Shown piece after piece: positions 20,287 to 58,556 of a DNA stretch of 64,000 nucleotides (position 1 is the first letter of the stretch; each line of letters opens with the position of its first letter). The notes beneath the pieces were generated by a model that saw only the letters and a list, made by a program, of their open reading frames with translations, was not told where the DNA came from and did no database searches. Both the position numbers and the translations under genes were made by a program. The stretch is from an uncultured Candidatus Saccharibacteria bacterium (GTDB lineage Bacteria; Patescibacteriota; Minisyncoccia; Phycocordibacterales; Phycocordibacteraceae), in NCBI GenBank assembly GCA_964638585.1, contig CAZXAN010000001.1, positions 108,372-172,371 of the forward strand, in the 5' to 3' direction.

Positions 20287-20352
20287 GTTCTCGCCATACT
20301 GGGTTTGTTTTCACCTCTTTGACGCCCTGATCGCTACGCGTATCCTCTCACC

Positions 20353-21061: not shown

Positions 21062-21144
21062 GTGTAAAGCATGCTGCGGCGGCCGGCTTTAAGAATGTGA
21101 TACCGGACTAAGCAACCTCTGTTTGAATTTACCACCTTCGAATA

Positions 21145-21477: not shown

Positions 21478-21531
21478 GGGACGCTCGCAGAAATAATGGT
21501 CGGCCGGATCAGCATGAGTAGATGGTCGTGA

Positions 21532-22423: not shown

Positions 22424-23314
22424 ATGCCTTTGGCCGATTCCGTTTCATCAGATCTCTGGGCGGCTAGTGAATGCGCCCACGGATTCCGAGCAGGCATGAG
22501 CGCCTTACGGGAAGCTGCGTTCGATGTTTTTGCGTCCCTGCATCATGACTGGGATGCCCCGCAGTTTTTCCTCCCCCCAACCTCCGTGGGTATCTCGCCG
22601 GATATATTGGAAGCCAGAGCTATGGCGGACCAGTCGGGAGTTGCGCAACACGAGTTCTTCCGCATAGCGCAAAGTTCCCCGGACCTGCTCAGGCTTTGGA
22701 CGAGCCAAGAAGCGGTTGTCACCGGGCCGTTTTCGCAGATGCTTCTATTGCTCGCAAGCCGAATAAAGAACGTTCACAGCCGCGCGAAGTTTCTTGAAGT
22801 CATTGAAGGAGAGCACGGTAACGTGCGAGATGGTGTGGCCTATCATTCTCATCCTTGGTTGCTTTATCGCCTCTGTGTGTCCGTTGATCTAGACCTTGCG
22901 GCGGTACGTCCGCTTCAGCCGACTCTCAAATTCCTCGCCGCGCTTGCTGATTCCTTCGAACATATGGAGGTTGCACTTGGCGTATTGGGAATTGGGAATG
23001 AGCGAATGCTGTTGTCCGAGTATGCCACAGTGGAGCGTTGTTTCGACGCGTGTATGCCGAACGCGGAGTATCGAGCGTTTTTGAGGGCTAACGTCGACGA
23101 AGATGAAATGCATTCTGCAATCATTGAGGCAGTGGTCTCTACCTTCTCGTCTCCCGACGCCGTTCAGCAATACGTCGAGGGCGCGCGGCGCGGTGTCAAA
23201 GCAAGGCTCGTCTATTATGACGAGCTTCTCAAACATTGGATTGACAGAGGGTTGGAACCGGAGTGGCTACGACCTATGTATCCGGCAACCGCGACTCCGG
23301 GTGTGGTGAGTTGA
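22424..23314 (+). CDS. putative heme-oxygenase-like fold (TenA/PqqC/CADD-like) iron-containing redox protein
   Basis: all-helical; EGEHG...H.HP motif arrangement; low-confidence family call. Confidence 0.35.
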   Translation: MPLADSVSSDLWAASECAHGFRAGMSALREAAFDVFASLHHDWDAPQFFLPPTSVGISPDILEARAMADQSGVAQHEFFRIAQSSPDLLRLWTSQEAVVTGPFSQMLLLLASRIKNVHSRAKFLEVIEGEHGNVRDGVAYHSHPWLLYRLCVSVDLDLAAVRPLQPTLKFLAALADSFEHMEVALGVLGIGNERMLLSEYATVERCFDACMPNAEYRAFLRANVDEDEMHSAIIEAVVSTFSSPDAVQQYVEGARRGVKARLVYYDELLKHWIDRGLEPEWLRPMYPATATPGVVS

Positions 23315-23429
23315 GCAGTCGAAGAAGGCGGCAAAACGCAAAGATGCGAAGAGCGACCCAACGACAAGACAAGACCTGTACAGCTATGCGTACTTAGGTT
23401 CTTGGGAGAGAAATGGTAAACTAAACAAC

Positions 23430-24422
23430 ATGACAAACTTGGAGTCTAGCCCAATGGATGTAAAGGTTCTGGTTACTGGATCAAGCGTTGACGGTCGGTT
23501 TCTCGCGCACCTCAGCGATGCCGGCCTACGAGTTCACAATCCGACGCACCTTCTAACGGACGAAGAACTCAGGGTCGAGCTCTCTGATACTGTTGCCTAT
23601 CTCCTCGGGGGTGATGAGTACGCAAGTGGTGCCGCCATGGAGAGTGCGGAAGGCCTCAAGATTATTGCGTTTCTCGGAGTTGGTTACGAGTCATTCATCG
23701 ATGTGCAAGCTGCAAGTCGCCGAGGAATACTGGTGTCCAACACACCAGGAACTCTCACGAATTCTGTTGCTGAGTTTACGGTTGGCCAACTTCTCAACGC
23801 GAGGCGACGTCTCACCCAGTTCACAAATGCGTTCGTGCAAGGGCGGCCGGGGACTGAAACTAAACAGCGTGACTTAATTGGCACACGAGTAGGGATAGTC
23901 GGTCTTGGTACCAACGGGACTCGAATCGCGGAGATTCTTCGATTGGGTTTTGGGTGTCACGTGAATTACTTCAGTCGGACGCGTAAGTTTGACATCGAGG
24001 ATCGACTTGGTATTGCATACCAATCGCTGGACGAACTAATGGAATGGGCAGAAGCGTATGTCATCATGACGCCCGGAAACGACTCAACACGTGACCTCAT
24101 TGGCAAGCAGGAGTTTGCCCGGATACCGGCGAATAGTCAGCGCCTCCTCGTCAACACGGCCCGATCTAGCATTGTAAATCCTAAAGCGCTACTTGAAGCT
24201 CTTCGAAGCGAGCGTTTGTCCATCGCCGTATTCGATGGCTTTTACGACGATGATTGTGTCGAAAGGTCTACTCTCCTTGCGCTTGGCCAGGAGCGAATTC
24301 TCGTCACAGGACATATCGCGTCGCTAACTTCGGATGCGCGAGATGCGATGTCGGCTATGGCTGTAACTTCGATTCTCAATGTGTTGCGGACCGGCCGCGA
24401 TGATCACGTCGTGATCAAGTAA
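23430..24422 (+). CDS. D-isomer-specific 2-hydroxyacid dehydrogenase family, NAD-binding
   Basis: GIVGLGTNGTRIAEIL Rossmann motif and family-typical layout. Confidence 0.8.
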   Translation: MTNLESSPMDVKVLVTGSSVDGRFLAHLSDAGLRVHNPTHLLTDEELRVELSDTVAYLLGGDEYASGAAMESAEGLKIIAFLGVGYESFIDVQAASRRGILVSNTPGTLTNSVAEFTVGQLLNARRRLTQFTNAFVQGRPGTETKQRDLIGTRVGIVGLGTNGTRIAEILRLGFGCHVNYFSRTRKFDIEDRLGIAYQSLDELMEWAEAYVIMTPGNDSTRDLIGKQEFARIPANSQRLLVNTARSSIVNPKALLEALRSERLSIAVFDGFYDDDCVERSTLLALGQERILVTGHIASLTSDARDAMSAMAVTSILNVLRTGRDDHVVIK

Positions 24423-24436
24423 GTAGAGTCTGTCCT

Positions 24437-25033
24437 ATGGGCACCAAACCGAGCGATCGTGACTGGGCTCCACTCGTATGTGGACTTCTTGCCGCCCTCC
24501 TTGTTATTGTGTTGTCGCTTCAATGGTGGGACTTGCGAATATTTGGAACAGCAGTCGACTACCAGCACGCCGGGACTTGGTCTCAAATGCTATCTGGCGT
24601 TGGTACTACATGCGCGGTCGCTCTGACCCTCGCTGTCTTATGGCTTGAGCGAAGGCAGCGGCGCAAAGAGTTGGCCGAAACCCGAGATCGCGACCTTACA
24701 CGTGTGCATGCGTGGCTCACCCCCCATCAGTCTAAGAATGAGAACGAGCCCGAGTGGTTTCTTAACTTCCAAAACCACACCGCAGTTCCCATCTATAGAT
24801 GGCGAGTGCTGCTAGGCGGCAAGGACCTTCATCTTTGCAACGCGCTGTTTGGCCCTATCCGCCCCGACAGAAGCGAACTTCATCTCGCATCGCTTCGAGG
24901 CATGAACCATGCGGACTATCCGTCAACAACGTTCTACTTTACAACGGGCGATGGACGAGCGTGGGTTCTCGGTGCCGACGGAGGTGCGGTCGAAGTACTT
25001 GAGCAATGCGTGCAATGTGACAAAGAGCATTAG
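24437..25033 (+). CDS. membrane-anchored hypothetical protein upstream of NACHT gene
   Basis: two N-terminal hydrophobic helices; 24 nt before NACHT start. Confidence 0.4.
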   Translation: MGTKPSDRDWAPLVCGLLAALLVIVLSLQWWDLRIFGTAVDYQHAGTWSQMLSGVGTTCAVALTLAVLWLERRQRRKELAETRDRDLTRVHAWLTPHQSKNENEPEWFLNFQNHTAVPIYRWRVLLGGKDLHLCNALFGPIRPDRSELHLASLRGMNHADYPSTTFYFTTGDGRAWVLGADGGAVEVLEQCVQCDKEH

Positions 25034-25056
25034 GGATCGGCTCGTAGGTTCAAGAC

Positions 25057-27789
25057 GTGAAGGATAAGCGGGAGGCCAACAAGTGGGTGGATCCAAAGAG
25101 CCCGATAGCGGATACGGATACGCCCACGACGAGGAATCCAGAGGCATCGCCTCCAGATGACGAGGCTGCACTTCGCGTGTACTTGGACCTTCTTAACTCT
25201 AGGTTGAACTGCCTTGAGTTTGGAGATCCAAGTGAGCTTCTCCAGAGTTCGTATGGGCTGCGAGGCTCCATGAGCCGACTAGAGGATATTTGGGTCCCTC
25301 CGCTGCTGCGGGAAGTTCCCTTCGGCTATACTAATCCGCCAGACCAGCAGCAGGCTGCGCTTGAGGTCTCGCTAGATAGGGCGCTAGCGAAGCCAAGTAG
25401 AGTATACGTCTTCCTGGCTCAGCCAGGTGGAGGGAAGTCCACAGTATGCCGTTTCTTGGCATGTAAGATGTCGTCAGTGCTTCCTCGCTCAGAAGCTGAT
25501 CCTGTCCCAATATATCTCCCAGCGCGCTTCTTGCGTCTTGGGGAATCCGGAATCGATGACGCTGTGGTAAGCGCCGCGCTTGAGCAGCTTGGCAGCAGTG
25601 CCAATTCTGAGCCCGTGCGTTCCGCAGTTCGGCGTTCGCTTCCGCGAGCATTCGTGATCATTGACGGATTGGATGAAGTGCCCATAGGCCCCGATGGCCA
25701 GGTTGGTATCGAAACTACACGAGCTCGAGTGGTCCAAGTCGTTCGTTATCTATTTGCAACATACAAAGCGCTGCGTTGCCTCATTACCTGCCGTGAGGCG
25801 GATTACGTTCTCGATCGACAATCAATTCTCAGCGAGGCCAACCATTTCAGTATAGGTGGGTTATCCCCGGTTCAAGTGCAGACTGCCATCACGCGTTGGC
25901 ATACTGCTGCGGAAATTGCTGCAAGGCACGTGGCGTCCGCACCGGCGATCGACTGGCAGCAGCGAGCAATGGAGGTCCGAGAACTCATTCGGGCGGATGC
26001 GGAGATTGGGGCTATCGCTTCCGTTCCGTTGTTTCTCAATATGCTACAAGTCGTCTATTCCCCGGCGAAGGAGGCACCGCGCTCGATCAGTCAGCTGTGT
26101 GACAGGGCAATTCGCTTCCTCCTCTATGAGAAGCCGCGTCTTCGTAGTGACAGGGCAAAAGCGCCGGCCGGAGGTGGCGCTCGAATTGAGTTTCTCTGGC
26201 ATCCTCAATCAAGTGAATGGCTCTCTAGGATTCTCCAAGAGCTTGCCTACCAAATTCAGAAACGTTCCTTAGAGGGCGGTAGCCGCGGTGTTACATTACA
26301 GGAAATCCATGCTGTAGCCCTTACAGTAGTTGACGTAAAGGCGAGGGACATTAGTGAGTCGGGTCACCTTGCTTTGTCTGCTGTCGAGCATGTTGTTCAG
26401 GGTAATGGAGTACTCGCTGAAGAATCAGGGAGGTGGGATTTCACTCATAACATCTTTCGAGAAGTGTTGGCTGGGCAAGCGCTCCAGAGATACGACATTA
26501 CGCAAAGAGTAACCCTTGCTAAGACGCACGGCTGGCTTCTGCCTCTGCGCTATTGGGCTGGATATGTCGCTCTCTCGGAGGCTGGCATCGGCGAAATCTT
26601 TGTAATGGCGGCGGAGTTACGTCAGCGCGCACTTAGGAGCAAGAGGGATCGCGTAAATTACATATTGGCCGCTGCCGAGATTATGTGTGAAGTGAACTCC
26701 GTCAGCGAAACAGTCGAAGTTTTGTCGAAACTCAAGGAAAAGGTCCGACGTGACCTAATTAGACTGCTCGAAAACCGCAAACTGCCGTTGGCGCTTCGTG
26801 TACGCGCTGGCGATCTTCTCGGTTCTCTCGGCGACCCCCGCCTAGGGAAGTCATTTGTTGAAGCAGAGTTTGTTCGCATCCCGTCTCGCACATATACGGT
26901 AGGGCGCAACACGCCTCACACCGTATTAAATAAGAAATATGATGAGTGTCCCGCATCGCCCTGCGTTGTCGGCGACATGAGAGATTTCCGTATTGCATTA
27001 TTTCCCGTCACCAACCGTGACTACGCCGCGTTCATAGCAGATGGGGGTTACGAGGATTCCAGATACTATTGTTCGAAGGACTCGGCCCATTGGTTTCGCG
27101 GAGATGCCGGCTTTATGCAAGAATTGGCATCTCGTGTAGATCAGACTGCCCTAAAGCACTTCATGACTGAGTTGACTGCGGGTCGAGTGTCCGATCTAGA
27201 GTTGGTCGAGCTGCGGGACCGGATTCTCAAGCGAAATGCACCGCTCTATTGGTACGACCCGCGTTTTAATAGACCAAATCAACCTGTCGTCGGAATAAAC
27301 TGGTGGGAAGCGATGGCATTCTGTAGGTGGGCTGAAACAAAACTGCGAGCCGTGGGCGTCCTTCAAACAGGCGAGTCTGTGACGTTACCAACGGAGGTGC
27401 AGTGGGAGTGTGCCGCGAAGGGGCCTGATGATTCGGCTCCGCATCCGTGGGGAACTGCCGGCCCTGAGGATAATGCGCACGTTCGGACATCCAAGAGCAT
27501 CGCGCGGACCTGTGGAGTCGGATTGTTCCCGTGGGCGAGGTGCGCGGGTGGACCTCTAGATATTGTGGGGAACGTCTGGGAGTGGACCCGCTCGGTACCG
27601 GGGGTTCTCAAGGGCGCTTCATTTAGGAACGTTCCATCCACTGACGGTAATAGTGATCGTGTCGTGAGAGGCTCGTCTTGGCTGTCCACCGAGCCGGAGT
27701 CTGCGAGCATTACTTTCCGGTCCTTTGATCCACCCTGTAACGCCTACGAGGATCTCGGCTTCAGGATCGCAATCGTCGCACAGGAGTAG
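25057..27789 (+). CDS. STAND NTPase (NACHT-like) with HEAT/PBS-lyase-like repeat and C-terminal FGE-sulfatase (formylglycine-generating-enzyme-like) domain
   Basis: Walker A LAQPGGGKST, Walker B AFVIIDGLDEV; LGSLGDPR repeat; C-terminal RIALFPVTNRDYAAF...INWWEAMAFCRW...GNVWEWT...RVVRGSSW. Confidence 0.8.
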   Translation: MKDKREANKWVDPKSPIADTDTPTTRNPEASPPDDEAALRVYLDLLNSRLNCLEFGDPSELLQSSYGLRGSMSRLEDIWVPPLLREVPFGYTNPPDQQQAALEVSLDRALAKPSRVYVFLAQPGGGKSTVCRFLACKMSSVLPRSEADPVPIYLPARFLRLGESGIDDAVVSAALEQLGSSANSEPVRSAVRRSLPRAFVIIDGLDEVPIGPDGQVGIETTRARVVQVVRYLFATYKALRCLITCREADYVLDRQSILSEANHFSIGGLSPVQVQTAITRWHTAAEIAARHVASAPAIDWQQRAMEVRELIRADAEIGAIASVPLFLNMLQVVYSPAKEAPRSISQLCDRAIRFLLYEKPRLRSDRAKAPAGGGARIEFLWHPQSSEWLSRILQELAYQIQKRSLEGGSRGVTLQEIHAVALTVVDVKARDISESGHLALSAVEHVVQGNGVLAEESGRWDFTHNIFREVLAGQALQRYDITQRVTLAKTHGWLLPLRYWAGYVALSEAGIGEIFVMAAELRQRALRSKRDRVNYILAAAEIMCEVNSVSETVEVLSKLKEKVRRDLIRLLENRKLPLALRVRAGDLLGSLGDPRLGKSFVEAEFVRIPSRTYTVGRNTPHTVLNKKYDECPASPCVVGDMRDFRIALFPVTNRDYAAFIADGGYEDSRYYCSKDSAHWFRGDAGFMQELASRVDQTALKHFMTELTAGRVSDLELVELRDRILKRNAPLYWYDPRFNRPNQPVVGINWWEAMAFCRWAETKLRAVGVLQTGESVTLPTEVQWECAAKGPDDSAPHPWGTAGPEDNAHVRTSKSIARTCGVGLFPWARCAGGPLDIVGNVWEWTRSVPGVLKGASFRNVPSTDGNSDRVVRGSSWLSTEPESASITFRSFDPPCNAYEDLGFRIAIVAQE

Positions 27790-36956: not shown

Positions 36957-37142
36957 ATGGATGACAAAGAAGCACGGCGCGTCCAGGAGTTTCAGGAGGC
37001 ATATGAGCAAGAGTTCGGCGAAGAGCTTACGACAGGAGAAGCGGGCGTGATGCTTACGCAGCTGGTGCAATTATATTTGCACATCTCCCGCCCGTCACCA
37101 CGGGACACGCCTGGGGTTAGCGATGACGTGACACAGAACTAA
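36957..37142 (+). CDS. small conserved protein, family A
   Basis: MDDKEARRVQEF...MLTQLVQLYLHISR; stop overlaps stop of convergent family-B ORF (CTAA). Confidence 0.5.
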   Translation: MDDKEARRVQEFQEAYEQEFGEELTTGEAGVMLTQLVQLYLHISRPSPRDTPGVSDDVTQN

Positions 37143-37269
37143 GCTGCCTTCTTGAATTCGTCACCTTCGAAGCGCTTCTTAAGCGCGCGGATATTTTCTA
37201 TGGTACGTTTAACTTCATCGTCGTCGCGGCTTAAAAAGGTGCGAACGTCGTTGACGAACGCCAGCTGAA
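37139..37269 (-). CDS. small conserved ORF, family B (…LAFVNDVRTFLSRDDDEVK...IRALKKRFEGDEFKKAA), no ATG start in this copy
   Basis: four copies differ mostly at synonymous positions, implying a coding constraint; first in-frame codon CTG after TGA. Confidence 0.4.
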
Positions 37270-37277
37270 GTCACACT

Positions 37278-37296
37278 TAGTCATACGCAGTAGTAC
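37278..37296. promoter_or_regulatory. imperfect palindrome AGTCATACGCAGTAGTACT upstream of RHH gene, candidate operator
   Basis: perfect version AGTCATACGCAGTATGACT recurs at 47188-47206 in the same context. Confidence 0.3.
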
Positions 37297-37399
37297 TGGT
37301 ACTAACACCCTCAAAAGTACCTAACTGAGCCATTTGTTGCCATCTAGGCACGTTGTCTCCTCTTTAGCAGCTCACCACGGCTGGAGACAATATCCACGT

Positions 37400-37558
37400 A
37401 TGGCGCGCACCACCATTACCTTTACGATCTCACTTCCTCCAGAAATGGCAGAGGAGCTTGAAGAAATAATGAAGAAAGAGCATCGCACGCGCTCCGAACT
37501 CATTCGGGAAGCACTGCGTCGATATGTCGCCGCTGTCGCTGAAGGTCGCCGTGAGTGA
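37400..37558 (+). CDS. ribbon-helix-helix (CopG/Arc-like) DNA-binding protein
   Basis: MARTTITFTISLPPEMAEELEEIMKKEHRTRSELIREALRRY. Confidence 0.7.
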   Translation: MARTTITFTISLPPEMAEELEEIMKKEHRTRSELIREALRRYVAAVAEGRRE

Positions 37559-41043: not shown

Positions 41044-41289
41044 TTGTCTACTTCAATCGTTATAGCGCACAACCTTTATGAATTCATGCTGGCGGCTTAC
41101 CGCATGTACCTCCGGCTCGAGTTCGAATGGAAACTGGGGAGCCTGGGGAAGGAACAGGAGGCTAGTCTCACGCGAGAGACTGGAGACGCAAGGTTAATGC
41201 TCCTACAGTTGGTTCAGTTGTACTTGCTCATCTCTCGTCGGCTACCGCCTGAACCGCCTGACACAAGCGACGCTCGACAAAAAGGCTAG
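41044..41289 (+). CDS. small protein, family A, N-terminally diverged copy
   Basis: C-terminal half ...LMLLQLVQLYLLISRRLPP matches family; N-terminus unrelated. Confidence 0.4.
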   Translation: MSTSIVIAHNLYEFMLAAYRMYLRLEFEWKLGSLGKEQEASLTRETGDARLMLLQLVQLYLLISRRLPPEPPDTSDARQKG

Positions 41290-41299
41290 GCAGCCTGTT

Positions 41300-41413
41300 T
41301 CAGATCGCAACTTCGAAGCGCTTTTTCAAAGCGCGTATGTTTGCTACAGTATCTTTAACTTCATCATCGTCCCTACTCAAAAAGGTGCGAACATCGTTGA
41401 TGAACGCCAGCAT
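41300..41413 (-). CDS. small ORF, family B, only copy with ATG start (MLAFINDVRTFLSRDDDEVKDTVANIRALKKRFEVAI)
   Basis: ATG CTG GCG TTC; other copies have CAG/TAG in place of ATG. Confidence 0.45.
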   Translation of the reverse strand: MLAFINDVRTFLSRDDDEVKDTVANIRALKKRFEVAI

Positions 41414-41498
41414 GGCTAGAAAATGTGCCATCCAGGCACGCAATCAATTCGTGACAAACCTTAGTTGCAACCTGGTCTATGGGGCATAGAATAGGGCT

Positions 41499-44417
41499 GT
41501 GAGCCATTTTGAAGATAGCTATGATGCGTTTCGATATCCTTTAAATTCTGAAGGAACCCCCGGATTTCGCCTCGCTCAACTAGGGGCGCTACATGCCGCC
41601 GCCTCTCACTTTGCCAATCGAAGCGAGCCGGGCATTGTGACAATGCCGACTGGATCAGGTAAGACCGCGGTATTGATTGCAGCGGCGTACGTACTTCGTT
41701 CGAAACGGGCTCTCGTCATTACACCGAGCAGACTTGTCCGTGAGCAAATTGCCGAGGAGATCGCAAACCTTAGAACCTTAAAAGAAGCCGGAGCTTTGCC
41801 ACAAGATCACCCGACGCCCAGAGTAATGAGTACTCGTAATAAGGTCCGGAGCACGGCGGAATGGGAGGACATGCGCAATTACGATGTAGTTGTTGCCACT
41901 GTACAAAGCATCAGCCCGGAATTTGAGGGCATACCTGAACCACCCCCAGATTTGTTTGATCTTGTTTTGGTAGATGAAGCACATCACAGTCCCGCACGCA
42001 CTTGGCAAGCAGTCTTGGATCATTTTGACTCAGCAAAGCGACTTTTGTTCACAGCAACCCCCTTTCGACAAGATCAAAAGGAAATTAAGGGACGCTTCAT
42101 TTTTACATATGATCTTCGGGCTGCTTACAACGATGGTGTTTTCGGCGAAATTTCATATCACCCCGTTACGCCGCAGGCTAATGAGAGTCACGATGAAGCT
42201 ATTGCTGAGGCGGCCGAAGCACAATTCAGGGCGGATGAACAAGCCGGATATCGACATCGGGTTATGGTTAGAACTGATGGACTCAAAAGAGCGCAAGACC
42301 TACTTGCGGTATATGAACGAACAACGGATTTACGGCTCAAGCTAGTTACTGGCAATAACTCTCTACGATATGTAAAGCAGGTAATCAGGCAGCTTGGCGA
42401 CGGTGAGCTTGACGGTATAGTGTGCGTCAATATGCTCGGGGAAGGATTCAACTTTCCCGCCTTAAAAATCGCAGCGATTCACGCACCACATAAGTCGCTT
42501 AGCGTCACACTGCAGTTTGTGGGACGGTTTGCACGTACGGTAGGGGAAAACTTAGGTCCAGCCACGTTTCTAGCAGTTCCATCGGACGTCGAAATAGAAG
42601 CCGAGCGCTTGTACGATACAAGAGCTGTGTGGCAAGAGATTATACAAAATCTCGCGGCTCTTCGTGTCGGCCAGGAAGCAGATGTTCGTGAAGTTCTCCA
42701 GTCTTTTGCCGCCATAGACTCTGCACCCGATCTCTCAGACCTGTCTCTTTATGTTCTTGAGCCCTACTATCATGTAAAGGTGTATCAACTCGAAGAAGAT
42801 ATTGATATTGAGGACCAGATCGGATTTCCATCTAGATTTCAAATCGTATTTCACGCAGTTAGCGTTCCTCACAACGCCGCAATTTATATCACACGAGAGA
42901 TAAGTCAGCCTAGATGGACGGCCGATGACAGGCTTTCAAATGTTGAATCAGACTTATTCATTTTTTATTACGATACCGCCACAAAACTGTTATTCGTTTG
43001 TGCATCTAAAAGGACGGCGGGCCTTTACGACGAAATAATCGAGGCGTTTGCAGATGCCGATCCGCGACCTCTGCCACTTGTACGCTTGAACAAAGCACTA
43101 AACGACCTTACGGCACCCGAGTTCTTCAATGTGGGCATGAGAAATCGTGTTTCTTCAAATACAACTGAGTCGTATCGCATCATTACCGGATCAAATGCCG
43201 ACAAGTCTGTTTTGAAAAGTGATGGACGTCTCTACCATCGAGGACACGTATTTGGGCGTGCCACAGAGGAAGGCAACGCCGTCACAATTGGTCTTAGTAG
43301 TGCTTCAAAAATATGGAGTAATAGGAGTTCTAAGCTCCCGGAGCTAATAGCATGGTGTTCAAAACTCGCCCAAAAGATAAGCAGCGATCGGATTCCCATT
43401 ACGAACTCGGGCCTGGATTATTTGGATGCAGGTCAGCAACTAGAAGTGTTGCCTGAGGATATTATCGCTGTCGATTGGCCGACCAATGTTTATCGCAGCT
43501 CCATTTCGGCTCGCTTTATTAATTCTGCTGGAACCGAAGTACGCGCTCCTCTCGTTGATTTCAGCCTCTTGATCGATAAACCCGCATCTACTGCGGAAGC
43601 AATCATGATTGAGTTGAAGTATGACGACACCGCGTATCGTTTTACATTCTCTTTTAATACAGATCGGTTTTTTGAGCTAGCGGACCCGGGACAACCGGAG
43701 ATAAGTGTCGAACACAATCGAACTCTCGTTCCTTTAATAGACTTCGTAAACGAAGAAATGTTGCTCTTCTATACAGCCGATCTTTCCTTGGTTGATGGAT
43801 ACAACATATTCCGAGCTCCAGTGGAACCACCACCACCGCTCAATGACGCTGCAATCGAAGTAATCGACTGGGCCGCCGGAAACGTCAACATTCAACGGGA
43901 ATTCGGTGATGCTGGAGCGGGAAGGCATTCAATCCACGAGCACATGGAGTCGGTAGTCAATTCTGGGGAATCGACTGTTGCATATTATGACCATGGAACT
44001 GGAGAAATTGCGGACTTTGTTACCTTCAAGGAAGATGATGGACGAATTCTCGTACAGTTCTATCACTGCAAAGGAGCTACGGGCGCAGCTCCAGGACATC
44101 GATTAGCCGATATTGCTGAGGTCACAAGTCAGGTTGTTAAGTCTGTAACCTGGGCTCGGAAGCAAAGAATCATGAGTAGTATTCGGCGCAGATTTACCAA
44201 AAATATAGGGAGTCACCGGTTCTTGCGAGGCGATCTCGGCACCTTGGAGCAACTATTGGCCCCCGCGGCTCCTGCGTCAGTGGATTTTGAGTTTATTGCT
44301 GTGCAGCCAGGACTTCGAAAAGAAGGTCTTACAAATGAGATATCGAACATGCTGGCAGCAGCCAGCGACTACCTCGTAAGAGCGGGGTTTAAACCACTTC
44401 GGATTTTTTCGTCATAA
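41499..44417 (+). CDS. SF2 DEAD/DEAH-box helicase (type III restriction Res-like core) with about 590-aa uncharacterised C-terminal domain
   Basis: motif I MPTGSGKT, II LVLVDEAHH, III TATP, VI QFVGRFAR; C-terminal region has no recognised motifs except a possible D...QFYHCK nuclease-like segment. Confidence 0.85.
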   Translation: MSHFEDSYDAFRYPLNSEGTPGFRLAQLGALHAAASHFANRSEPGIVTMPTGSGKTAVLIAAAYVLRSKRALVITPSRLVREQIAEEIANLRTLKEAGALPQDHPTPRVMSTRNKVRSTAEWEDMRNYDVVVATVQSISPEFEGIPEPPPDLFDLVLVDEAHHSPARTWQAVLDHFDSAKRLLFTATPFRQDQKEIKGRFIFTYDLRAAYNDGVFGEISYHPVTPQANESHDEAIAEAAEAQFRADEQAGYRHRVMVRTDGLKRAQDLLAVYERTTDLRLKLVTGNNSLRYVKQVIRQLGDGELDGIVCVNMLGEGFNFPALKIAAIHAPHKSLSVTLQFVGRFARTVGENLGPATFLAVPSDVEIEAERLYDTRAVWQEIIQNLAALRVGQEADVREVLQSFAAIDSAPDLSDLSLYVLEPYYHVKVYQLEEDIDIEDQIGFPSRFQIVFHAVSVPHNAAIYITREISQPRWTADDRLSNVESDLFIFYYDTATKLLFVCASKRTAGLYDEIIEAFADADPRPLPLVRLNKALNDLTAPEFFNVGMRNRVSSNTTESYRIITGSNADKSVLKSDGRLYHRGHVFGRATEEGNAVTIGLSSASKIWSNRSSKLPELIAWCSKLAQKISSDRIPITNSGLDYLDAGQQLEVLPEDIIAVDWPTNVYRSSISARFINSAGTEVRAPLVDFSLLIDKPASTAEAIMIELKYDDTAYRFTFSFNTDRFFELADPGQPEISVEHNRTLVPLIDFVNEEMLLFYTADLSLVDGYNIFRAPVEPPPPLNDAAIEVIDWAAGNVNIQREFGDAGAGRHSIHEHMESVVNSGESTVAYYDHGTGEIADFVTFKEDDGRILVQFYHCKGATGAAPGHRLADIAEVTSQVVKSVTWARKQRIMSSIRRRFTKNIGSHRFLRGDLGTLEQLLAPAAPASVDFEFIAVQPGLRKEGLTNEISNMLAAASDYLVRAGFKPLRIFSS

Positions 44418-44477: not shown

Positions 44478-46380
44478 CCAGAATCGGGTAGGAGGCGGGG
44501 TCACCCCCGCCGTCCTCCCACACCACCGGACGTGCGGTTCCGCATCCGGCGGTTCATTGAACACACTGGAGTCGTCGCATCGTATCGAGCAGCGACACCA
44601 GACCGGAACGATCGAAGAAGGACTTCGGGAATGCCTGGTTCATGTGGCTTGCGCCACTGTTCCACCACGGCCCACGTTGGTTGAAGGCCGAGCGAAACGC
44701 CCGTTCTTCCGTCAGTCCCGCCTTCATCAGGTTCATGGCGCGAGTATAAGGGCGTTTCCACTGTCGCCACAGAATGCAGCGCAATTTGTGCCGGATCCAG
44801 CCATCCAACTCTTCCAGCGCCCGCTTGGTCTCGGTCAGCCGAAAGTAGGCCATCCAGCCGCGAAGGATCGGGTTGAGTTCGGTGATGACCTTGGTCAGGC
44901 TGCGACCTCTCGCGCCCTTGAGTACTTCCCGAATTTTGTCTTCCAGCCGCTGCAGGCTGGTCGGCGCAATCCGCAGTTTCGGGGTCTTATGCCACGTCAG
45001 GCTGTAACCCAGAAACTTCCTCGTCCACGGACGCGCCACCGCGCTCTTGGCCGCATTGACCGTGAGCTTGAGCGTGTCCGCCAGAAACTGAGTGATGCTC
45101 GCCATCACCCGCTCTCCCGCCTGTTGGCTTCTGACGTAGATGTTGCAGTCGTCCGCATACCGGCAGAAGGCATGGCCCCGGCGTTCCAGTTCCCGATCCA
45201 GTTCCGTCAGCAGAATGTTCGATAGCAGCGGACTGAGCGGCCCGCCTTGCGGCGTGCCTTCCGTCCTCGGGGAGACGATCCCCTCTGCCATCATGCCCGC
45301 TTCGAGATACCGGCGAATGAGGCGCAGCACTCGTGCGTCACCGATCTTCTTCGAGAGCTTCTCCATCAGTAAATCGTGATTGACGCGGTCGAAGAATTTC
45401 TCCAAGTCCACGTCCACCACAATCCTGCGACCTTCGGCGACATACTGCTTGGCCGCCTTGAGCGCTTGATGCGCGTTCCTCCCCGGTCGAAAGCCGTAAC
45501 TCGATTCGGAGAAGTCAGCCTCGAAGATCGGCGAGAGCGCCTGATGCAACGCTTGCTGGATCATCCGATCCGTCAGCGTCGGAATGCCGAGTGTCCTGAC
45601 TCCACCTTGCGGTTTCTGTATATCCACCCGGCGTACCGCTGAGGGCCTGTATTCCCCCGTCAGCAGTTTGGCTTTGATCCTCGGCCAGTGTTGCTTGAGG
45701 TGGTCTTTGAACTCGGCAACGCCAATGTCGTCGACTCCGGCTGCGCCTTTGTTCTCGACCACCCTCTGATAGGCGAGCTTCAGGTTGCCGCGCTCACACA
45801 CGACCTCCATCAGCCCGCTTTCCCGCTTCAACTCCGCTTTCGTCCGCAGACGGTTCGTCACGTCAGCCTCAGCGCCCAGCGCGGCTGCCTCGGCGTTGCG
45901 CGCCAACGCTTCCGTTCGGGTATCCACTTGCCGTGGGTCTTCTGCCTTCATCGACTGTCCATGTGTTCCCGCCGCCTACTTGCGGCATTCCCTGTTCGGC
46001 CCTTCGGTTCATGCAGACACCTAATATGGCCTCTGCTGACTTCTGCATGAGCCTCCCCGCACCTTTCGACGCCGGTAGCACAGAGGTTGCCCTCGGCACC
46101 CATGCAGATCTCCCCGGGTATGACGCACCCACCTTCACGCTTATACCTGTCGGATATACGTCACGGCGTTCCGTGCAAGTTCCGGGCTTCGACGATAATT
46201 GCCGTCTTACCCCACCGTGCCGCCTCGTATCCGCTTCCTATTCGTCAGGCCAGCGCTTTGCCTTCGGCTTCCTCCAGATCCGTGGTCGCCCACGACACCC
46301 TTGCCGTTCAGCTAACTCTTCCCCTTGCCGGGCGAGTAAAGGACTTCCACCTCCAAGTGAGTGCGCCCTGCCGGGCGCAC
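44478..46380 (-). mobile_element. group II intron (likely class C) with intron-encoded reverse transcriptase
   Basis: 5' GTGCGCCC at 46380 (minus strand) directly after a GGCGCC-N6-GGCGCC hairpin plus TTTGTCATT; RT ORF; domain V-like hairpin 44521-44554 and domain VI-like hairpin 44485-44518; 3' boundary approximate. Confidence 0.75.
44554..45951 (-). CDS. group II intron reverse transcriptase/maturase
   Basis: RT motifs including [11 protein letters not shown] (YADD), maturase X region. Confidence 0.9.
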
Positions 46381-46500: not shown

Positions 46501-46905
46501 TTATCTCTCCACAGGGGTGTCTTTGTCAATATGCAGGGCAATCCCCACACAATGGCGGATTGCCGCAAGCTCATCGGCTGGAATGCTCGGAACAACGTAC
46601 TCCCGCTTTGCCACTTTATACCGATCCAGCCGGGCAAGCGACACCGTCACCACCATGTCGCACTTTGCCCATGTCACCAGGTCTTTCGGCTTATCCGGAA
46701 GCGGGTTTTCCTTCAGCATATGGTGATACGGAGCAACCGGCTTTGGCTGCTTCGTTGAGAGCGGTACAACCGTTACCAACTGTGCATTGCTTTTGTGCTT
46801 CGCAATGATCACGACCGGCCGCTTCTTCACCATCTCGGGGACGACGAAGCCGTGGAAATCGCAGATGACGACGCTACCGGCTTTGGGTTGGAATTTGAGT
46901 GGCAT
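46501..46905 (-). CDS. PemK/MazF-family toxin-like protein
   Basis: KAGSVVICDF, KRPVVIIA, LVTVVPLST spacing typical of MazF/Kid fold; good RBS GAGGAAAAATCATG. Confidence 0.65.
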   Translation of the reverse strand: MPLKFQPKAGSVVICDFHGFVVPEMVKKRPVVIIAKHKSNAQLVTVVPLSTKQPKPVAPYHHMLKENPLPDKPKDLVTWAKCDMVVTVSLARLDRYKVAKREYVVPSIPADELAAIRHCVGIALHIDKDTPVER

Positions 46906-47034: not shown

Positions 47035-47173
47035 GTGATTAGATCCGACGCGTTTATTTTGTCCTGATGCGCACGGTCGTCATTTTCGAAGCGTTTTTTA
47101 AGCTCGCGGATGTTTGCTATAGTATCCTTAGCTTCATCGTCGTCTCGACTTAAAAAGGTGCGAACGTCGTTGA
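47035..47173 (-). CDS. small ORF, family B, longer C-terminal variant, upstream of mazF-like gene, no ATG
   Basis: …LAFINDVRTFLSRDDDEAKDTIANIRELKKRFENDDRAHQDKINASDLITKA; 130 nt upstream of and co-directional with the toxin-like gene. Confidence 0.4.
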
Positions 47174-47187
47174 TGAACGCCAGCTAA

Positions 47188-47206
47188 AGTAATACCTAGT
47201 CATACG
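47188..47206. promoter_or_regulatory. perfect 19-bp palindrome AGTCATACGCAGTATGACT upstream of RHH gene
   Basis: 7-bp arms AGTCATA/TATGACT around CGCAG; conserved with 37278-37296. Confidence 0.35.
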
Positions 47207-47306
47207 CAGTATGACTCAGCTAAAACGGCTGAATTACGTACTTTGTTGCCGCCTTGGCACATTCACACGTCTTGTTCGCGCCTGCCTATCGGAAGAGACT
47301 GGTCGC

Positions 47307-47444
47307 ATGCCACGTATAACCGTTACGTTCTCGATCTCCCTCCCTCCAGAAATGGCTGTTGAGCTGGAAGAGACAATGAAAAGGGAGCATCGCACGCGCT
47401 CCGAACTCATTCGTGAAGCGCTGCGTCGGTATTTTTCGCAATAA
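47307..47444 (+). CDS. ribbon-helix-helix (CopG/Arc-like) protein, second copy
   Basis: MPRITVTFSISLPPEMAVELEETMKREHRTRSELIREALRRYFSQ. Confidence 0.7.
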   Translation: MPRITVTFSISLPPEMAVELEETMKREHRTRSELIREALRRYFSQ

Positions 47445-48253: not shown

Positions 48254-48429
48254 AGCGGAGAATGGCTTAACGAGTAAGCCGCTTTCTGCTATGGCAAATG
48301 CAAATTGAACCTATCAAAGAACTCGAATAACAGTAGCAAAGAAATTCAATCAGTCAAGGTGGGTTGAGAGAACAATGTGGCACGTTCTCCATCCTTGTAC
48401 GTACGAGAGCGGTACGCGATGCTGTATGT

Positions 48430-48585
48430 ATGGACAACAAAGAATCACAACGTGTTCGAGAATTCCAGGAGGCAGTCAGGGAAGAGTTCGTGGAGGATCT
48501 TCCAGAGAAGGATGCAAGGATAATGCTCCAGCAACTGGTTCAGTTGTACTTGCTCATCTCGCGTCCTTTACCGGAGAAAAGCTAA
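48430..48585 (+). CDS. small conserved protein, family A (MDNKESQRVREF...LVQLYLLISR)
   Basis: fourth full copy; stop overlaps convergent B ORF. Confidence 0.5.
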   Translation: MDNKESQRVREFQEAVREEFVEDLPEKDARIMLQQLVQLYLLISRPLPEKS

Positions 48586-48710
48586 GCCGCCTTCTTGAAT
48601 TCACCACCTTCAAACCGCTTCTTGAGTGCGCGAATGTTTGCTACAGTATCTTTGACTTCATCGTCGTCGCGGCTCAAAAAGGTGCGAACGTCGTTGATGA
48701 ACGCCAGCTG
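48582..48710 (-). CDS. small ORF, family B, copy at the accessory-region/backbone junction, no ATG
   Basis: …LAFINDVRTFLSRDDDEVKDTVANIRALKKRFEGGEFKKAA; ends 15-20 nt from rdgB start. Confidence 0.35.
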   Translation of the reverse strand, partial: QLAFINDVRTFLSRDDDEVKDTVANIRALKKRFEGGEFKKAA

Positions 48711-48731
48711 TGAGCATGAAATTTAAAAATC

Positions 48732-49277
48732 ATGCAAAAACTCACCTTCATCACCGGCAATGCCGCCAAAGCAAAATATTTGAGCGATTATTTTCATGCG
48801 CCCGTTGAGCACATGAAGCTCGACCTGCACGAGATTCAATCACTCGATTTAAAAGAAGTGGTTGAAGATAAGGCGCGCCGCGCATACGCGGTGGCTAAAA
48901 GCCCTGTGCTTGTAGAGGATACGTCTCTCATTTTTAACAGTCTGAAAAAACTTCCAGGTCCACTTATCAAGTGGTTTTTAGAAACACTCGGAAATGATGG
49001 CTTGTGCCGACTGCTCGATGGCGTTGATGACAGAAGTGCATTCGCAGAAATTGAATTCGCTATTTGTGACGAGCAAGGAGTTCATACGTTTCGAGGCTCC
49101 GCTGAGGGCACAATTGCAGAGACTCCTCGCGGTGAGACAGGCTTCGGTTGGGACCCTATTTTTATTCCGAAGGGGTACACAAAGACGTGGGCGGAGATGA
49201 CGGGCGACGAGAAGCACGCGACCTCAATGCGTAAAATCGCGTTGGAGAAGATGTCAACTTTTTTAAATCAAAAATGA
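48732..49277 (+). CDS. rdgB: non-canonical purine NTP pyrophosphatase (Ham1/RdgB family)
   Basis: ITGNAAK N-terminus, FGWDPIF motif, family-typical length. Confidence 0.85.
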   Translation: MQKLTFITGNAAKAKYLSDYFHAPVEHMKLDLHEIQSLDLKEVVEDKARRAYAVAKSPVLVEDTSLIFNSLKKLPGPLIKWFLETLGNDGLCRLLDGVDDRSAFAEIEFAICDEQGVHTFRGSAEGTIAETPRGETGFGWDPIFIPKGYTKTWAEMTGDEKHATSMRKIALEKMSTFLNQK

Positions 49278-55790: not shown

Positions 55791-58556
55791 ATGGAATCTA
55801 CACCGAAGTTGTCCACGCCTGAAGAAGAACTCGCGTATTTGCGCGAGCAGGTCGCTATCAAAGAGGCAGAGCTCTCCGAGAACGCGAGTCCTGACGAGCG
55901 CGTGCGAATTGTTTCTGAAACGATTCACGAACATCACGCAGCTCCCTCCGAGGTTCTTGCAAAAGAATATAAAATGAGCGAAGCGACTATGAACGACGAG
56001 GCTGGCGGTATATTGGCCGAGCTCAACTTGGGTAAGAACGCAGACGCGATAAAGAACCTGCAACAAACAATGGAGACAAAAGGTATCAAGAACGCGCTCT
56101 CGGTGGTGGAGAAGCTTAACAATCCGCATATTGCAGACGACTTCCATAGATTTCTTGTGCGTTATGTGGCATCTGGCTTGCCAGCGCTTGGCATTGATGA
56201 AAAGGTTCCACGATTTCAGGCACTACATATGACGCTGTATGAAATCGCGTTGCCGGAACCAAAGAACGACGAGCCAAACTCTCGTCAGAAAACGCTCAAA
56301 GAGCTCATATCGGGGATGGAACAATTCTATTCTGGGTTAATGTCGGTTGGAGAAGCGACTGTGGGCGAACCGAACTATTACGCGCTTGAGCTTGCGGTTC
56401 CAGCCAACAGTCCAGAACTGCAGTTCTATTCAGCCGTCCCGAACAGTAAAAAGGATCTATTTGAAAAACAGATCTTGGCTGTATTCCCAAACGCGCATCT
56501 GACAGAACAGCCATATGACTACAATATTTTCGCTGAATCCACTGGCGCGTCGCTCGCCTCGGTTGCAAAGTTTGCCGAAAATCCTGCACTCCCATTAAAA
56601 GACTATACCGACTTTGACTACGATCCTCTTAACGCGATAACGAACGCATTTGCAAAAATAGAAAAGATTGGAGAGGGCGCTGCGCTTCAGATAATTATTG
56701 AACCGCGCGCCGAGCGACACGTAAAGCATTACAAAAAGATTTTGCAGGCTCTGCGCAAGGGAGAAAAACACTCATCAGCTTTTAGTATTCCAGAAACAAT
56801 GCTTGGGACAATCGCGCGCGACATTAGCAAAACTCTCTTCTCAAATAAGCCAAAGGACGAGCAGAAGGCCAAAGAGGCAGAGACTCGCCAAATAGAAGCG
56901 AACAAGGCGTACATTGAACAGATTGAGAAAAAAATATCAACTCCTATTGCCGGTGTCACTATTCGTCTCGCAACATCTTCAGGTGACGAAGGCAGAGCGG
57001 GGCAGATACTCGGTGAGCTTGAGTCGGCATTCAATCAGTTTGCGAATACACAAGGAAACAGACTTAAATTTGAGCGACCAACAGGACGCGAGCTAGTGCG
57101 TACGTTTGACGAATTTTCTTTCCGCATGCCGAGCTCTTCTGCGTTACCTCTCTCTCTACGTGAGCTCACGACTATGTACCACTTCCCGCCATCTGGGATT
57201 GAGAGCTCTCCACACTTAAAGCAGTCTCGCATTACTCATGCGCCATCACCAATAGATTTGCCTAGTGCGGGAGTTCTAATTGGAGTCAACAATTATCGCG
57301 GGCACCAGACAGAGATTCGTCTAGCGCCAGAAGACAGACTTAGACATCTCTATGTTATCGGCCAAACTGGCACTGGTAAGACAGGATTGATGAAGTCAAT
57401 GATTATTCAAGACATAATAAACGGAGAAGGTTGTTGCTTTATAGACCCACACGGCTCTGACATCTTGGATATTCTCGCCGCGATACCGCCAGAACGTTAT
57501 AAAGACGTGATTTATTTTGACCCTGCAGATCTATCGCGTCCGTTCTCGCTTAACTTCTTAGAATATGATGCTTCGCGTCCAGAGCAAAAGACTTTTATTG
57601 TAAATGAGTTGTTAATGATTTTTAAAAGGCTCTACGGAGACGTTCCAGAAAGTATGGGTCCGGCGTTTGAACAATACTTCCGCAATGCAACACAGCTAGT
57701 TATGGAGGACCCGAGTAGCGGATCAACCATTCTAGATATCGCGCGCGTGCTCGCCAACAGCGAGTTCCGCAGAGAGAAGCTTGCAAAGAGTATGAATCCA
57801 ATCGTCAATCAGTTCTGGAATGAGATCGCGACAAAGGCGGGCGGAGAAGCGTCCCTGGAGAATATAGTGCCCTATATCACGAACAAGTTTGACGACTTCA
57901 CAGCGAACGACTTTATTCGTCCGATTATCGGCCAACAGGAGTCGTCATTTAAGTTTAGAGAAGTGATGGATACGAAGAAAATTCTGCTCATAAATCTTTC
58001 AAAGGGTCGTTTGGGCGAGAAGAATGCGAACCTGCTCGGCCTAATAATAGTCGGCAAACTCTTTATGGCGGCACTCTCGCGCGCGGATTCGCCAAAGGCT
58101 ATTCATCCTTCGTTCTACCTCTACATAGACGAGTTCCAGAATGTTACGACTGACTCTATTCCCGGGATTCTCTCGGAGGCGCGCAAGTACAAGCTCTCGC
58201 TCTCTGTGGCACACCAATTCCTCTCGCAGATAGAAGAGAAGACTAGGGATGCTGTCTTTGGCAATGTGGGCAATATGGCAGTATTCCGCGTTGGAGAAGA
58301 AGATGCAGAATTCTTTGCGAAGCAATTCACGCCGGTTTTTCAAGCGTTAGACTTTGTGAATATTGAAAACAGGAATGCGTATATGAAGATTCTTGCGAAT
58401 GGTATCCCGCAAAAACCATTTGATATGAGGACGCCTGACCTGCCGAAGATAAATCAGGCGCAAGTAGACGATCTAATACACCTTTCGTCACTAACTTATG
58501 GTCGCGACCGTGCTACAGTTGAAAACACCATCCGCGAGCGCTATCTAAATAAATAA
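55791..58556 (+). CDS. TraD/VirD4-like (T4CP-type) P-loop NTPase with about 470-aa N-terminal extension
   Basis: Walker A VIGQTGTGKTG, FIDPHGSD, Walker B YLYIDEFQ, VAHQFLSQIE; homologous to 10175..11377 and 6971..9751. Confidence 0.7.
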   Translation: MESTPKLSTPEEELAYLREQVAIKEAELSENASPDERVRIVSETIHEHHAAPSEVLAKEYKMSEATMNDEAGGILAELNLGKNADAIKNLQQTMETKGIKNALSVVEKLNNPHIADDFHRFLVRYVASGLPALGIDEKVPRFQALHMTLYEIALPEPKNDEPNSRQKTLKELISGMEQFYSGLMSVGEATVGEPNYYALELAVPANSPELQFYSAVPNSKKDLFEKQILAVFPNAHLTEQPYDYNIFAESTGASLASVAKFAENPALPLKDYTDFDYDPLNAITNAFAKIEKIGEGAALQIIIEPRAERHVKHYKKILQALRKGEKHSSAFSIPETMLGTIARDISKTLFSNKPKDEQKAKEAETRQIEANKAYIEQIEKKISTPIAGVTIRLATSSGDEGRAGQILGELESAFNQFANTQGNRLKFERPTGRELVRTFDEFSFRMPSSSALPLSLRELTTMYHFPPSGIESSPHLKQSRITHAPSPIDLPSAGVLIGVNNYRGHQTEIRLAPEDRLRHLYVIGQTGTGKTGLMKSMIIQDIINGEGCCFIDPHGSDILDILAAIPPERYKDVIYFDPADLSRPFSLNFLEYDASRPEQKTFIVNELLMIFKRLYGDVPESMGPAFEQYFRNATQLVMEDPSSGSTILDIARVLANSEFRREKLAKSMNPIVNQFWNEIATKAGGEASLENIVPYITNKFDDFTANDFIRPIIGQQESSFKFREVMDTKKILLINLSKGRLGEKNANLLGLIIVGKLFMAALSRADSPKAIHPSFYLYIDEFQNVTTDSIPGILSEARKYKLSLSVAHQFLSQIEEKTRDAVFGNVGNMAVFRVGEEDAEFFAKQFTPVFQALDFVNIENRNAYMKILANGIPQKPFDMRTPDLPKINQAQVDDLIHLSSLTYGRDRATVENTIRERYLNK

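Follow-up and report, generated by a model that had tools for sequence, protein, structure and literature searches.

A stand-alone SF2 helicase gene with a putative C-terminal nuclease module in a defence/mobile island of a Candidatus Saccharibacteria bacterium

The gene and its setting

The gene described here encodes a 972-residue protein with a superfamily 2 (SF2) helicase motor and lies in a stretch of 64,000 nucleotides of contig CAZXAN010000001.1 from an uncultured Candidatus Saccharibacteria bacterium. This whole stretch is called the window below, and all positions are counted from its first letter. The window holds a defence/mobile island, after which ordinary genes resume at about 48.7 kb. 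A preliminary description of the window had reported at 41499-44417 an open reading frame (ORF) of 972 amino acids with all helicase motifs in the first 380 residues, followed by a part without recognizable motifs except a possible PD-(D/E)xK-like segment, with no adjacent partner such as a HamA or DUF1837 gene, a cassette repeat upstream and an intron downstream. The ORF list reproduces the reading frame exactly, the helicase motifs are intact and all lie within the first ~350 residues, and residues 381–972 are unmatched in Pfam, PHROGs, NCBIfam, PADLOC and the PDB sequences (phmmer), permissive thresholds included. Neither HamA/DUF1837 nor any other partner gene was found beside the helicase. 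The upstream repeat is a module of ~350 nt that recurs in the window, and the downstream element is a minus-strand group II intron, identified by Rfam matches and the ORF of its reverse transcriptase (RT). The features are collected in Table 1.

The gene begins with a GTG codon, which is the right start, because the N-terminus of the protein fits the family consensus MSYFxxxYxxFRYP. The reading frame is not a chance one, since hundreds of full-length homologues are found with E-values down to 0; the homologue records include the identical 972-residue protein (P0001). The promoter-like site just upstream of the start codon is weak, as such sites are not more numerous in the region than expected from shuffled sequence. 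The mapped 3' part of the intron starts 65 nt past the stop codon of the helicase, and the helicase ORF is intact.

Table 1. Positions of the helicase gene, its parts and other features of the window.
Feature	Positions	Strand	Basis or remark
Complete helicase gene	41499-44417	+	972 aa + stop, GTG start; ORF list
Promoter-like site TTGCAA-16-TAGAAT, just 5' of start codon	41465-41492	+	consensus match only
SF2 ATPase/translocase core, aa 1-377, two RecA-like lobes	41499-42629	+	Pfam, PDB sequence matches, Foldseek
Motif I (Walker A) MPTGSGKT, aa 49-56	41643-41666	+	P50, G52, G54, K55 invariant (114-sequence alignment)
Motif II DEAH, aa 159-162	41973-41984	+	D159, E160 invariant; A161, H162 nearly (114-sequence alignment)
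Motif VI QFVGRFAR, aa 339-346	42513-42536	+	Q339, G342, R343, R346 invariant
Long linker helix, aa 378-402 (predicted helix 378-401)	42630-42704	+	full-length AlphaFold2 model
Module A, aa 403-536: beta-sheet then two helices, acidic	42705-43106	+	AlphaFold2; no family match
Module B, aa 537-632: basic, isoelectric point 10.0	43107-43394	+	conservation and isoelectric point over 188 members
Module C, aa 633-799: beta-rich, acidic (isoelectric point 4.1), most variable part	43395-43895	+	AlphaFold2, 188 members
Module D, aa 800-972: PD-(D/E)xK-like (FokI/Mrr-like) putative nuclease	43896-44414	+	AlphaFold2, Foldseek, PDC-S71 homology
Candidate active-site segment D831-H-G-T-G-E836-I-A-D839 ... 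H856-C-K858	43989-44072	+	residue conservation
Upstream copy of cassette-boundary module, two convergent small ORFs	41090-41443	.	repeat comparison
Avs-like neighbour, 924 aa	38225-40999	-	Mrr_cat 5.2e-11, nSTAND_NTPase5 2.8e-14, TPR repeats
Group II intron	44483-46295	-	Rfam RF00029, RF01998, RF02001 (D1-D4, D5/6)
RT/maturase ORF of group II intron	44554-45951	-	RVT_1 + GIIM
PemK-family toxin gene	46501-46905	-	
DprA-like gene	15515-16420	-	mapped from locus L049
ThiF/E1-like gene with adjacent Multi_ubiq gene	17817-19085	-	mapped from L049
NACHT + FGE-sulfatase protein, 910 aa	25057-27789	+	
921-aa protein, DUF8128 + weak TraG-D_C match, among ordinary genes downstream of the island	55791-58556	+	

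The motor

The SF2 motif set is complete, invariant in the family and distributed over the two RecA-like lobes: besides motifs I, II and VI of Table 1 it comprises the Q motif (Q27), Ia, III (TATP, residues 185–188) and V (LGEGF, residues 313–317). Pfam assigns ResIII to residues 24–190 (3.4e-27) and Helicase_C to residues 252–346 (8.8e-6), both above the cut-offs, with further matches to DEAD (2.2e-13) and SWI2_SNF2 (1.9e-13). The PDB sequences matched by the motor are those of a type I R subunit (3h1t), SauUSI (7clg, 9.7e-12), XPB and RadD. In a Foldseek search of the PDB with the full-length model the matches were XPB, RadD, UvrB, SauUSI, LGP2/MDA5 and LlaBIII at E-values of 1e-15 to 1e-11, those of XPB, RadD and UvrB alone being ~1e-15 to 1e-13. 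The closest relatives of the motor among profile hidden Markov models (HMMs) are mREase_IV (SauUSI-like, 4.5e-13) and PbeA (6.6e-16) of PADLOC and dnd_restrict_1 (2.9e-13) of NCBIfam. The RadD model of NCBIfam gives the protein 53 bits against a cut-off of 720, and all repair families remain far below their cut-offs. The motor is an intact XPB/RadD/type-I-R-like SF2 ATPase of the ResIII branch.

The C-terminal region: modules A to C

The C-terminal region was modelled with AlphaFold2 (AF2) both alone and as part of the whole protein. The model of residues 381–972 alone is of moderate quality (predicted local distance difference test, pLDDT, 78.6; predicted template modelling score, pTM, 0.43), and the full-length model built with a 114-sequence alignment is confident (pLDDT 89.8, pTM 0.75). 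When the PDB (releases to April 2026) was searched with the full-length model by Foldseek, only helicase cores were found, with query-normalised TM-scores of at most 0.28; the architecture as a whole is shared by no solved structure. The motor is followed by a long linker helix and four modules, A to D, whose borders follow the secondary structure in the AF2 model and the conservation among 188 members of the family. The four modules are colinear and of fixed length throughout the family.

Module B is as conserved as the motor over the 188 members and carries the motifs FFNVGMRNR, ESYR, LYHRGH and TIGLSSASKIWSN; the 114-sequence alignment shows no variation at G546, Y559, G564, G582, H583, G598 and W606. 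Since the distant enterobacterial branch has lost some of the motifs (ESYR, HRGH), a universal second active site in this module is unlikely. The pLDDT of module B is 36–48 in the model without the motor versus 73–94 in the full-length model, so that the module may pack on the motor, a comparison confounded by the deeper alignment behind the full-length model.

No PDB sequence was matched by a profile of residues 400–660, and Pfam scans of the individual members revealed no recurrent family in this part. Foldseek against viral predicted structures gave one significant match, an unnamed 322-residue protein (E 2.4e-4), together with many low-probability matches to TATA-box-binding proteins (TBP), a protein similar to B263R of African swine fever virus, and beta-clamps; a TBP match is also present in the PDB list for residues 381–972. 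From these weak Foldseek matches modules A and B might together form a TBP-like pseudo-dimeric beta-saddle. The proposal is tentative, as hhalign comparisons of the four modules with one another revealed no internal sequence repeat.

Module D, a putative PD-(D/E)xK-like nuclease domain

The order of secondary structure elements in the AF2 model of module D is helix 812–822, strands 827–832, 840–846 and 849–857, helix 869–885 and strand 905–910, with block-mean pLDDT values of about 90–97. In this predicted structure the order matches that of the PD-(D/E)xK superfamily. D839 is situated at the start of the second strand and H856-C-K858 at the end of the third. The segment DFVTF...VQFYHCK, which the preliminary description had pointed to as possibly PD-(D/E)xK-like, is indeed present and contains D839, H856 and K858.

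In the 114-sequence alignment D831, E836, D839, H856, K858, Q878 and Q936-P937 are invariant, and the first six of them are kept in distant proteins of E. coli, Klebsiella and Pseudomonas (~25–29% identity). Over the 188 members 14 columns of the module are at least 95% conserved. D839 and H856 are 17 residues apart, which is also the spacing of D450 and D467 in FokI, whose catalytic residues we take to be D450 and D467-x-K469. A Foldseek search of the PDB with residues 381–972 gave FokI structures as the only high-probability fold matches (2fok_A, probability 0.90, E 0.017, 171 columns; 1fok_A, probability 0.63). By eye, the pattern D-x-G-x-G-E-x-A-D...Y-H-C-K also seems to resemble the Mrr-type pattern D-G-G-x-D...(Q/S)-C-K of the Avs-like protein encoded next to the helicase, which provides a lead.

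From predicted structure, the weak fold match and residue conservation, module D is assigned, with rather better than even confidence, as a PD-(D/E)xK-like domain which is probably catalytic and has a histidine at the second acidic position.

Distribution and gene neighbourhoods

A search with the C-terminal 592 residues gave 385 word-sharing proteins, nearly all of 971–977 residues and sharing the helicase domains. When 1.84 billion representatives were searched exhaustively, the result was 1,226 clusters (50% identity) at E <= 0.001, 360 of them at E <= 1e-30, and in nearly all of the 1,226 the C-terminal match falls at residues ~380–970 of a protein of ~970 residues. The family is represented in Alpha- and Gammaproteobacteria, Bacillota, Acidobacteriota, Planctomycetota, Chloroflexota, Gemmatimonadota, Binatia and a lineage of the candidate phyla radiation. 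They are carried by 73 plasmids, conjugative ones included, among replicons of Klebsiella, Pseudomonas, Acinetobacter, Streptomyces, Bacillus and haloarchaea. Eight of the 5,426 complete E. coli genomes (0.15%) have a member, and the E. coli protein WP_001549206.1 (996 residues) and the window protein are colinear from end to end (29% identity, E = 1e-114). Phages are nearly devoid of the family (2 Acinetobacter records; 1 of 2.9 million IMG/VR contigs). Every source annotates the proteins only as 'DEAD/DEAH box helicase'.

Decayed copies are frequent and are frameshifted, split or truncated by insertion sequences (IS). Such copies were seen on an Acinetobacter pittii plasmid, on an Agrobacterium plasmid, in Streptococcus dysgalactiae and on Rhizobium etli pB. 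Some truncated copies are preceded by ISAba22 or IS66 insertions and others are broken into several ORFs; one is a remnant of 127 residues, with the same match found again on some 20 plasmids of Rhizobium. A number of copies in genomes are likewise split or interrupted. Plasmid matches annotated as 'hypothetical protein' were considered as new domain combinations and rejected, as they are IS-truncated or fragmented copies.

To describe the neighbourhoods, all ORFs flanking the gene at about 32 independent loci were clustered. With artefactual ORFs overlapping the helicase set aside, no flanking cluster was common to more than three loci; those shared by a few loci are AbiE components, IS21 and a group of flanking ORFs of 504–723 residues. 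Across these loci there is no HamA, Mod or conserved small ORF, and a methyltransferase is absent among the flanking-ORF families matched by at least two ORFs. A 67-residue upstream ORF in the window and at a Saprospiraceae locus was rejected as a partner, the two being unrelated in sequence. The helicase gene stands alone, without a conserved partner.

Families recurrent among the 118 flanking ORFs are serine recombinases (4), UvrD/GajB-like helicases (3), AbiEi and AbiEii (2 each), integrases (2), Fic/SoFic (2), M78/CapP-like proteins (2–3) and HNH proteins (2). At one locus the helicase adjoins AbiE, Fic and DruA, and at another an S24 LexA-like repressor, a PemK toxin and a serine recombinase. 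The E. coli copy is located in an integrase-bearing island and adjoins the RT-PtuA-PtuB genes of retron Ec78, while the Klebsiella and Pseudomonas plasmid copies sit between IS elements. The E. coli island with the homologue also contains, at locus positions 21192–24807, two site-specific integrases and beside them a 784-residue hypothetical protein without a PADLOC match.

The island and mobile contexts, the frequent decay and the near absence from phage genomes together give the profile of an accessory gene. As far as the association at about 32 loci goes, it is a horizontally moving and often lost gene, as defence genes are, unlike a housekeeping repair enzyme.

The island in the window

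The island contains DprA-like, ThiF/E1 and multi-ubiquitin genes, a gene pair for a helix-turn-helix (HTH) protein and an M78 peptidase, the NACHT + FGE-sulfatase gene, IS66 and IS21, the Avs-like gene, the helicase, the group II intron and pairs of PemK and ribbon-helix-helix (RHH) genes. The conflict-system-like genes at about 15515–27789, including the HTH and M78 peptidase pair, are situated upstream of IS66 and IS21. The 924-residue neighbour of the helicase has an Avs/STAND-type defence architecture, yet it matches no PADLOC system model at 1e-8, and a homologue search with its Mrr domain gave no match; it is encoded on the opposite strand and separated from the helicase by a repeat module.

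Copies of this ~350-nt module are found at 36957–37297, 41090–41443, 47077–47216 (partial) and 48380–48740, and also at L056:2249-3315, a further locus where two copies flank a PemK-like ORF. The small ORF on the plus strand of the module reads '..EFQEA..MLxQLVQLYLxISRP' and that on the minus strand 'LAFINDVRTFLSRDDDEVKDTxANIRALKKRFE'; a homologue search with a small ORF of the module gave a single 61-residue hypothetical protein. The 33-nt core occurs 4 times in the window, 0 being expected by chance, and elsewhere in only 3 metagenome contigs. Between the copies lie, as cargo, an RHH and the Avs-like gene; the helicase, the intron and PemK; and an RHH with a 253-residue ORF. The last copy abuts the ordinary genes. 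The arrangement gives the impression that cassettes have accumulated in tandem at a single hotspot. The two RHH_1 (CopG-like) genes, at 37334–37558 and 47211–47444 on the plus strand, are 81% identical over 129 nt, and toxin-antitoxin pieces are duplicated inside the island.

Comparison with known systems

The closest functional analogue of the window protein is likely Hna. Hna of Sinorhizobium meliloti, an abortive-infection defence protein, has 845 residues, a DinG/XPD-like SF2 motor and a reduced Arch domain; its ATPase and its nuclease are kinetically partitioned from each other, and the single-stranded DNA-binding protein of the phage acts as the activator which releases the nuclease (PMC13381803). 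Both are single polypeptides without a partner and of broad distribution, in which an SF2 ATPase at the N-terminus is combined with a restriction-endonuclease-like nuclease at the C-terminus, the latter being predicted in the window protein. The window protein differs in its XPB/RadD/ResIII-like motor, in the motif D...HxK and in ~420 additional residues (modules A–C) between the motor and the nuclease-like domain. DinG/XPD is absent from its PDB sequence matches and from the top 50 fold matches, PADLOC typeIV_DinG giving only a weak match around motif I. Similarity to Hna beyond generic helicase motifs was not seen in any search, none of which was a direct comparison with the Hna sequence. 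Since the motor of Hna is of the DinG/XPD type and its length is 845 residues, the window protein is not Hna.

With respect to the motor, SauUSI (7CLG) is among the closest helicase cores, and it also combines motor, nuclease and DNA-binding region in a single polypeptide without a methyltransferase. The nuclease of SauUSI is an N-terminal phospholipase D-type (PLD) domain, and its reader is a C-terminal DUF3427/SRA-like domain; in the window protein the domain order would be permuted and the nuclease class is another. Pfam finds neither a PLD nuclease nor a DUF3427/SRA-like reader in the window protein, which for lack of both is not SauUSI, and the PADLOC mREase_IV models align with the helicase only (model positions about 309–545).

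The type III Res and type I HsdR subunits share the ResIII-type motor (PF04851), and Res (EcoP15I) is likewise a protein of about 970 residues with a motor followed by a C-terminal PD-(D/E)xK nuclease. Mod or HsdM/S partners are neither adjacent to the window gene nor conserved beside its homologues, the C-terminal 592 residues have no Res or HsdR match in the PDB or PADLOC, and REase_III models touch only the helicase, in two distant members. The window protein is therefore not a type III Res. A C-terminal match to type III Res and a Mod gene nearby had been named in advance as findings that would contradict a single-gene defence protein; neither was found, and that reading is not refuted.

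Hachiman also combines a nuclease with an SF2 helicase and is found in defence islands, but it consists of two genes. HamA/DUF1837 was found neither in the window, nor among the flanking-ORF families, nor conserved at the about 32 other loci, and the window protein is for this reason not Hachiman; HamB models match only ~45 residues around motif I (E 0.006–0.014). In HmaA, ZorD and DdmD an SF2 motor is combined with a C-terminal PD-(D/E)xK-type nuclease, putative in the window protein, and used in defence. HmaA is a Snf2 helicase of roughly 1,190 residues with a NOV_C (PF13020) nuclease, encoded in the three-gene Hma locus (PMC11232893). NOV_C was not found in the window protein by Pfam, and because of this and of its Snf2 motor HmaA is a different protein. 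Published work on the END nuclease and on domain-centric discovery does not bear on the family. No ZorD model is among the PADLOC matches and no DdmD structure among the top 50 PDB fold matches; the match to DISARM DrmA is marginal (E 0.0059) and confined to Helicase_C, and partner genes of Zorya or DISARM are not present in the window.

The only known defence candidate related to the C-terminal region is PDC-S71 of PADLOC (PDLC05077, 589 positions), a single-gene candidate whose model covers no helicase. Of 38 diverse members, 18 match this model with their last domain (best E 1e-9); in P0266 residues 736–906 align with profile positions 323–493, roughly colinear with the C-terminal module of the family. 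The window protein has no match to PDC-S71 at E <= 0.1, and the E. coli, Klebsiella and Pseudomonas homologues likewise fall short of the model. Judged from these profile matches, the homology of the C-terminal region to PDC-S71 is real but distant.

Proposed function

We infer that the gene product is an ATP-driven DNA translocase-nuclease complete in one polypeptide, most likely an anti-phage or anti-plasmid immune protein; to this reading, function and nuclease activity included, we give a probability of about 0.5. The XPB/RadD/type-I-R-like motor would bind DNA and track along it with ATP, and the basic module B with the beta-rich module A, possibly a TBP-like saddle, would hold the DNA. 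The fast-evolving acidic module C may be a specificity or auto-inhibitory element; the mark of the invader that it senses might be free ends, replication intermediates, a base modification or a protein of the phage. Once licensed, the Mrr/FokI-like module D would cut the DNA; D839, E836, D831 and H856 would hold a divalent metal, K858 would be the catalytic lysine, and the cutting would halt phage or plasmid replication. The protein would work like the known nuclease-helicase immune proteins and represent a separate lineage with new modules.

Several results weigh against this proposal. The fold match of module D is below significance (FokI, E 0.017; no PDB match at E <= 0.001). A profile of residues 800–972 likewise retrieved nothing from the PDB sequences, this search and that with residues 400–660 yielding between them one spurious match, DltD (E 0.25); Pfam scans of the individual members in the same region gave no recurrent family, and hhalign was negative for module D both against the FokI cleavage domain and against the Mrr_cat domain of the Avs-like neighbour. 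The second catalytic position is an invariant His where Asp, Glu or Gln is usual, so the chemistry could be a different one, or the domain could serve for binding and not for cleavage. Known defence HMMs do not reach beyond the helicase core in the window protein or in its enterobacterial and Pseudomonas homologues. The evidence from defence islands is guilt by association at about 32 loci without a statistical background, and in the open-access literature no paper was found that names the family, the E. coli, Klebsiella or Pseudomonas accessions, or PDC-S71.

The claims of the preliminary description about function stand only in part. As for a single-gene helicase-nuclease, the gene is stand-alone, the motor is intact and the order of elements in module D is nuclease-like, but the fold match is weak and a His occupies the second catalytic position. 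A putative role in defence agrees with the defence and mobile island contexts. The 'undescribed type' holds insofar as the family lies outside the known systems; it is qualified by the ~170 residues of the C-terminal region that are distantly homologous to PDC-S71.

The protein could instead be a modification-dependent, ATP-driven restriction enzyme similar to type IV, with the logic of SauUSI permuted to motor, reader and nuclease: modified bases would be recognised by the middle modules, and translocation would be followed by cleavage by the Mrr-like C-terminal domain. The closest relatives of the motor (mREase_IV, PbeA, dnd_restrict_1, SauUSI) are restriction enzymes that lack a cognate methylase or are linked to modification, which fits this idea, as do the missing recurrent methyltransferase in the neighbourhoods, the visual likeness of the catalytic segment to the Mrr-type pattern and the variability of module C, target-recognition domains being often variable. 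However, SRA, EVE, YTH, PUA, DUF3427 or another known reader was not detected, hhalign against the Mrr_cat sequence was negative, and module B, the best-conserved part outside the motor, is near-constant across phyla, which is unusual for a reader in an arms race. We consider this enzyme type unlikely. Somewhat less likely again is a helicase-nuclease for DNA repair, replication restart or the maintenance of mobile elements, analogous to archaeal Hef, RadD or XPB-Bax1, which plasmids and islands would carry for their own replication or recombination. A patchy, low-frequency distribution (0.15% of E. coli genomes), frequent inactivation by IS elements, lack of conserved synteny with replication or repair genes, a position between bona fide defence genes and NCBIfam scores far below the repair-family cut-offs (RadD, 53 versus 720 bits) all disagree with such a role, even though XPB, RadD and UvrB are among the best relatives of the motor, Hef gives a weak match, and many copies are found on plasmids, integrative elements and prophage-like regions beside recombinases and replication proteins.

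The last alternative concerns module D itself, which might be a degenerate, non-catalytic endonuclease-like fold that binds DNA or protein; the whole would then be a translocase that remodels DNA-bound proteins or removes them, or a sensor that signals to unlinked effectors. A His in place of the canonical acidic residue of (D/E)xK and the lack of a significant nuclease match by sequence or fold could be explained in this way, and STAND proteins offer known cases of inactive endonuclease folds, such as Pfam NA-iREase1, to which the neighbouring gene has a weak match. But D831, E836, D839, H856, K858 and Q878 do not vary in at least 114 sequences, the most distant of which are about 33% identical, as is typical of an active site, and no conserved effector partner was found in the examined neighbourhoods; this alternative is the least probable of all.

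Returning to an immune translocase-nuclease, its more specific form is put forward with less confidence than the general one. The window protein could be the founding member of a very widespread single-gene immune family in which the ~420-residue middle part is a new sensor of DNA or a phage factor mounted on an XPB-like motor, and in which the effector is a restriction-endonuclease fold with an unusual invariant D...H-x-K active site.

Significance

Bacterial immunity repeatedly makes use of nuclease-helicase proteins (Hna, Hachiman, Nhi, Gabija, DdmD, Zorya ZorD, SauUSI). If the proposal is true, they would be joined by the present family as a distinct example, compact and very common: one gene of ~2.9 kb with a motor of another lineage and ~420 residues of sensor-like modules. 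The existence of a native E. coli homologue, WP_001549206.1, makes phage assays straightforward. If the function is not defence, a large family annotated only as 'DEAD/DEAH box helicase' still needs one. The gene is carried by clinical plasmids of Klebsiella, Pseudomonas and Acinetobacter, and it could thereby affect phage therapy and plasmid traffic.

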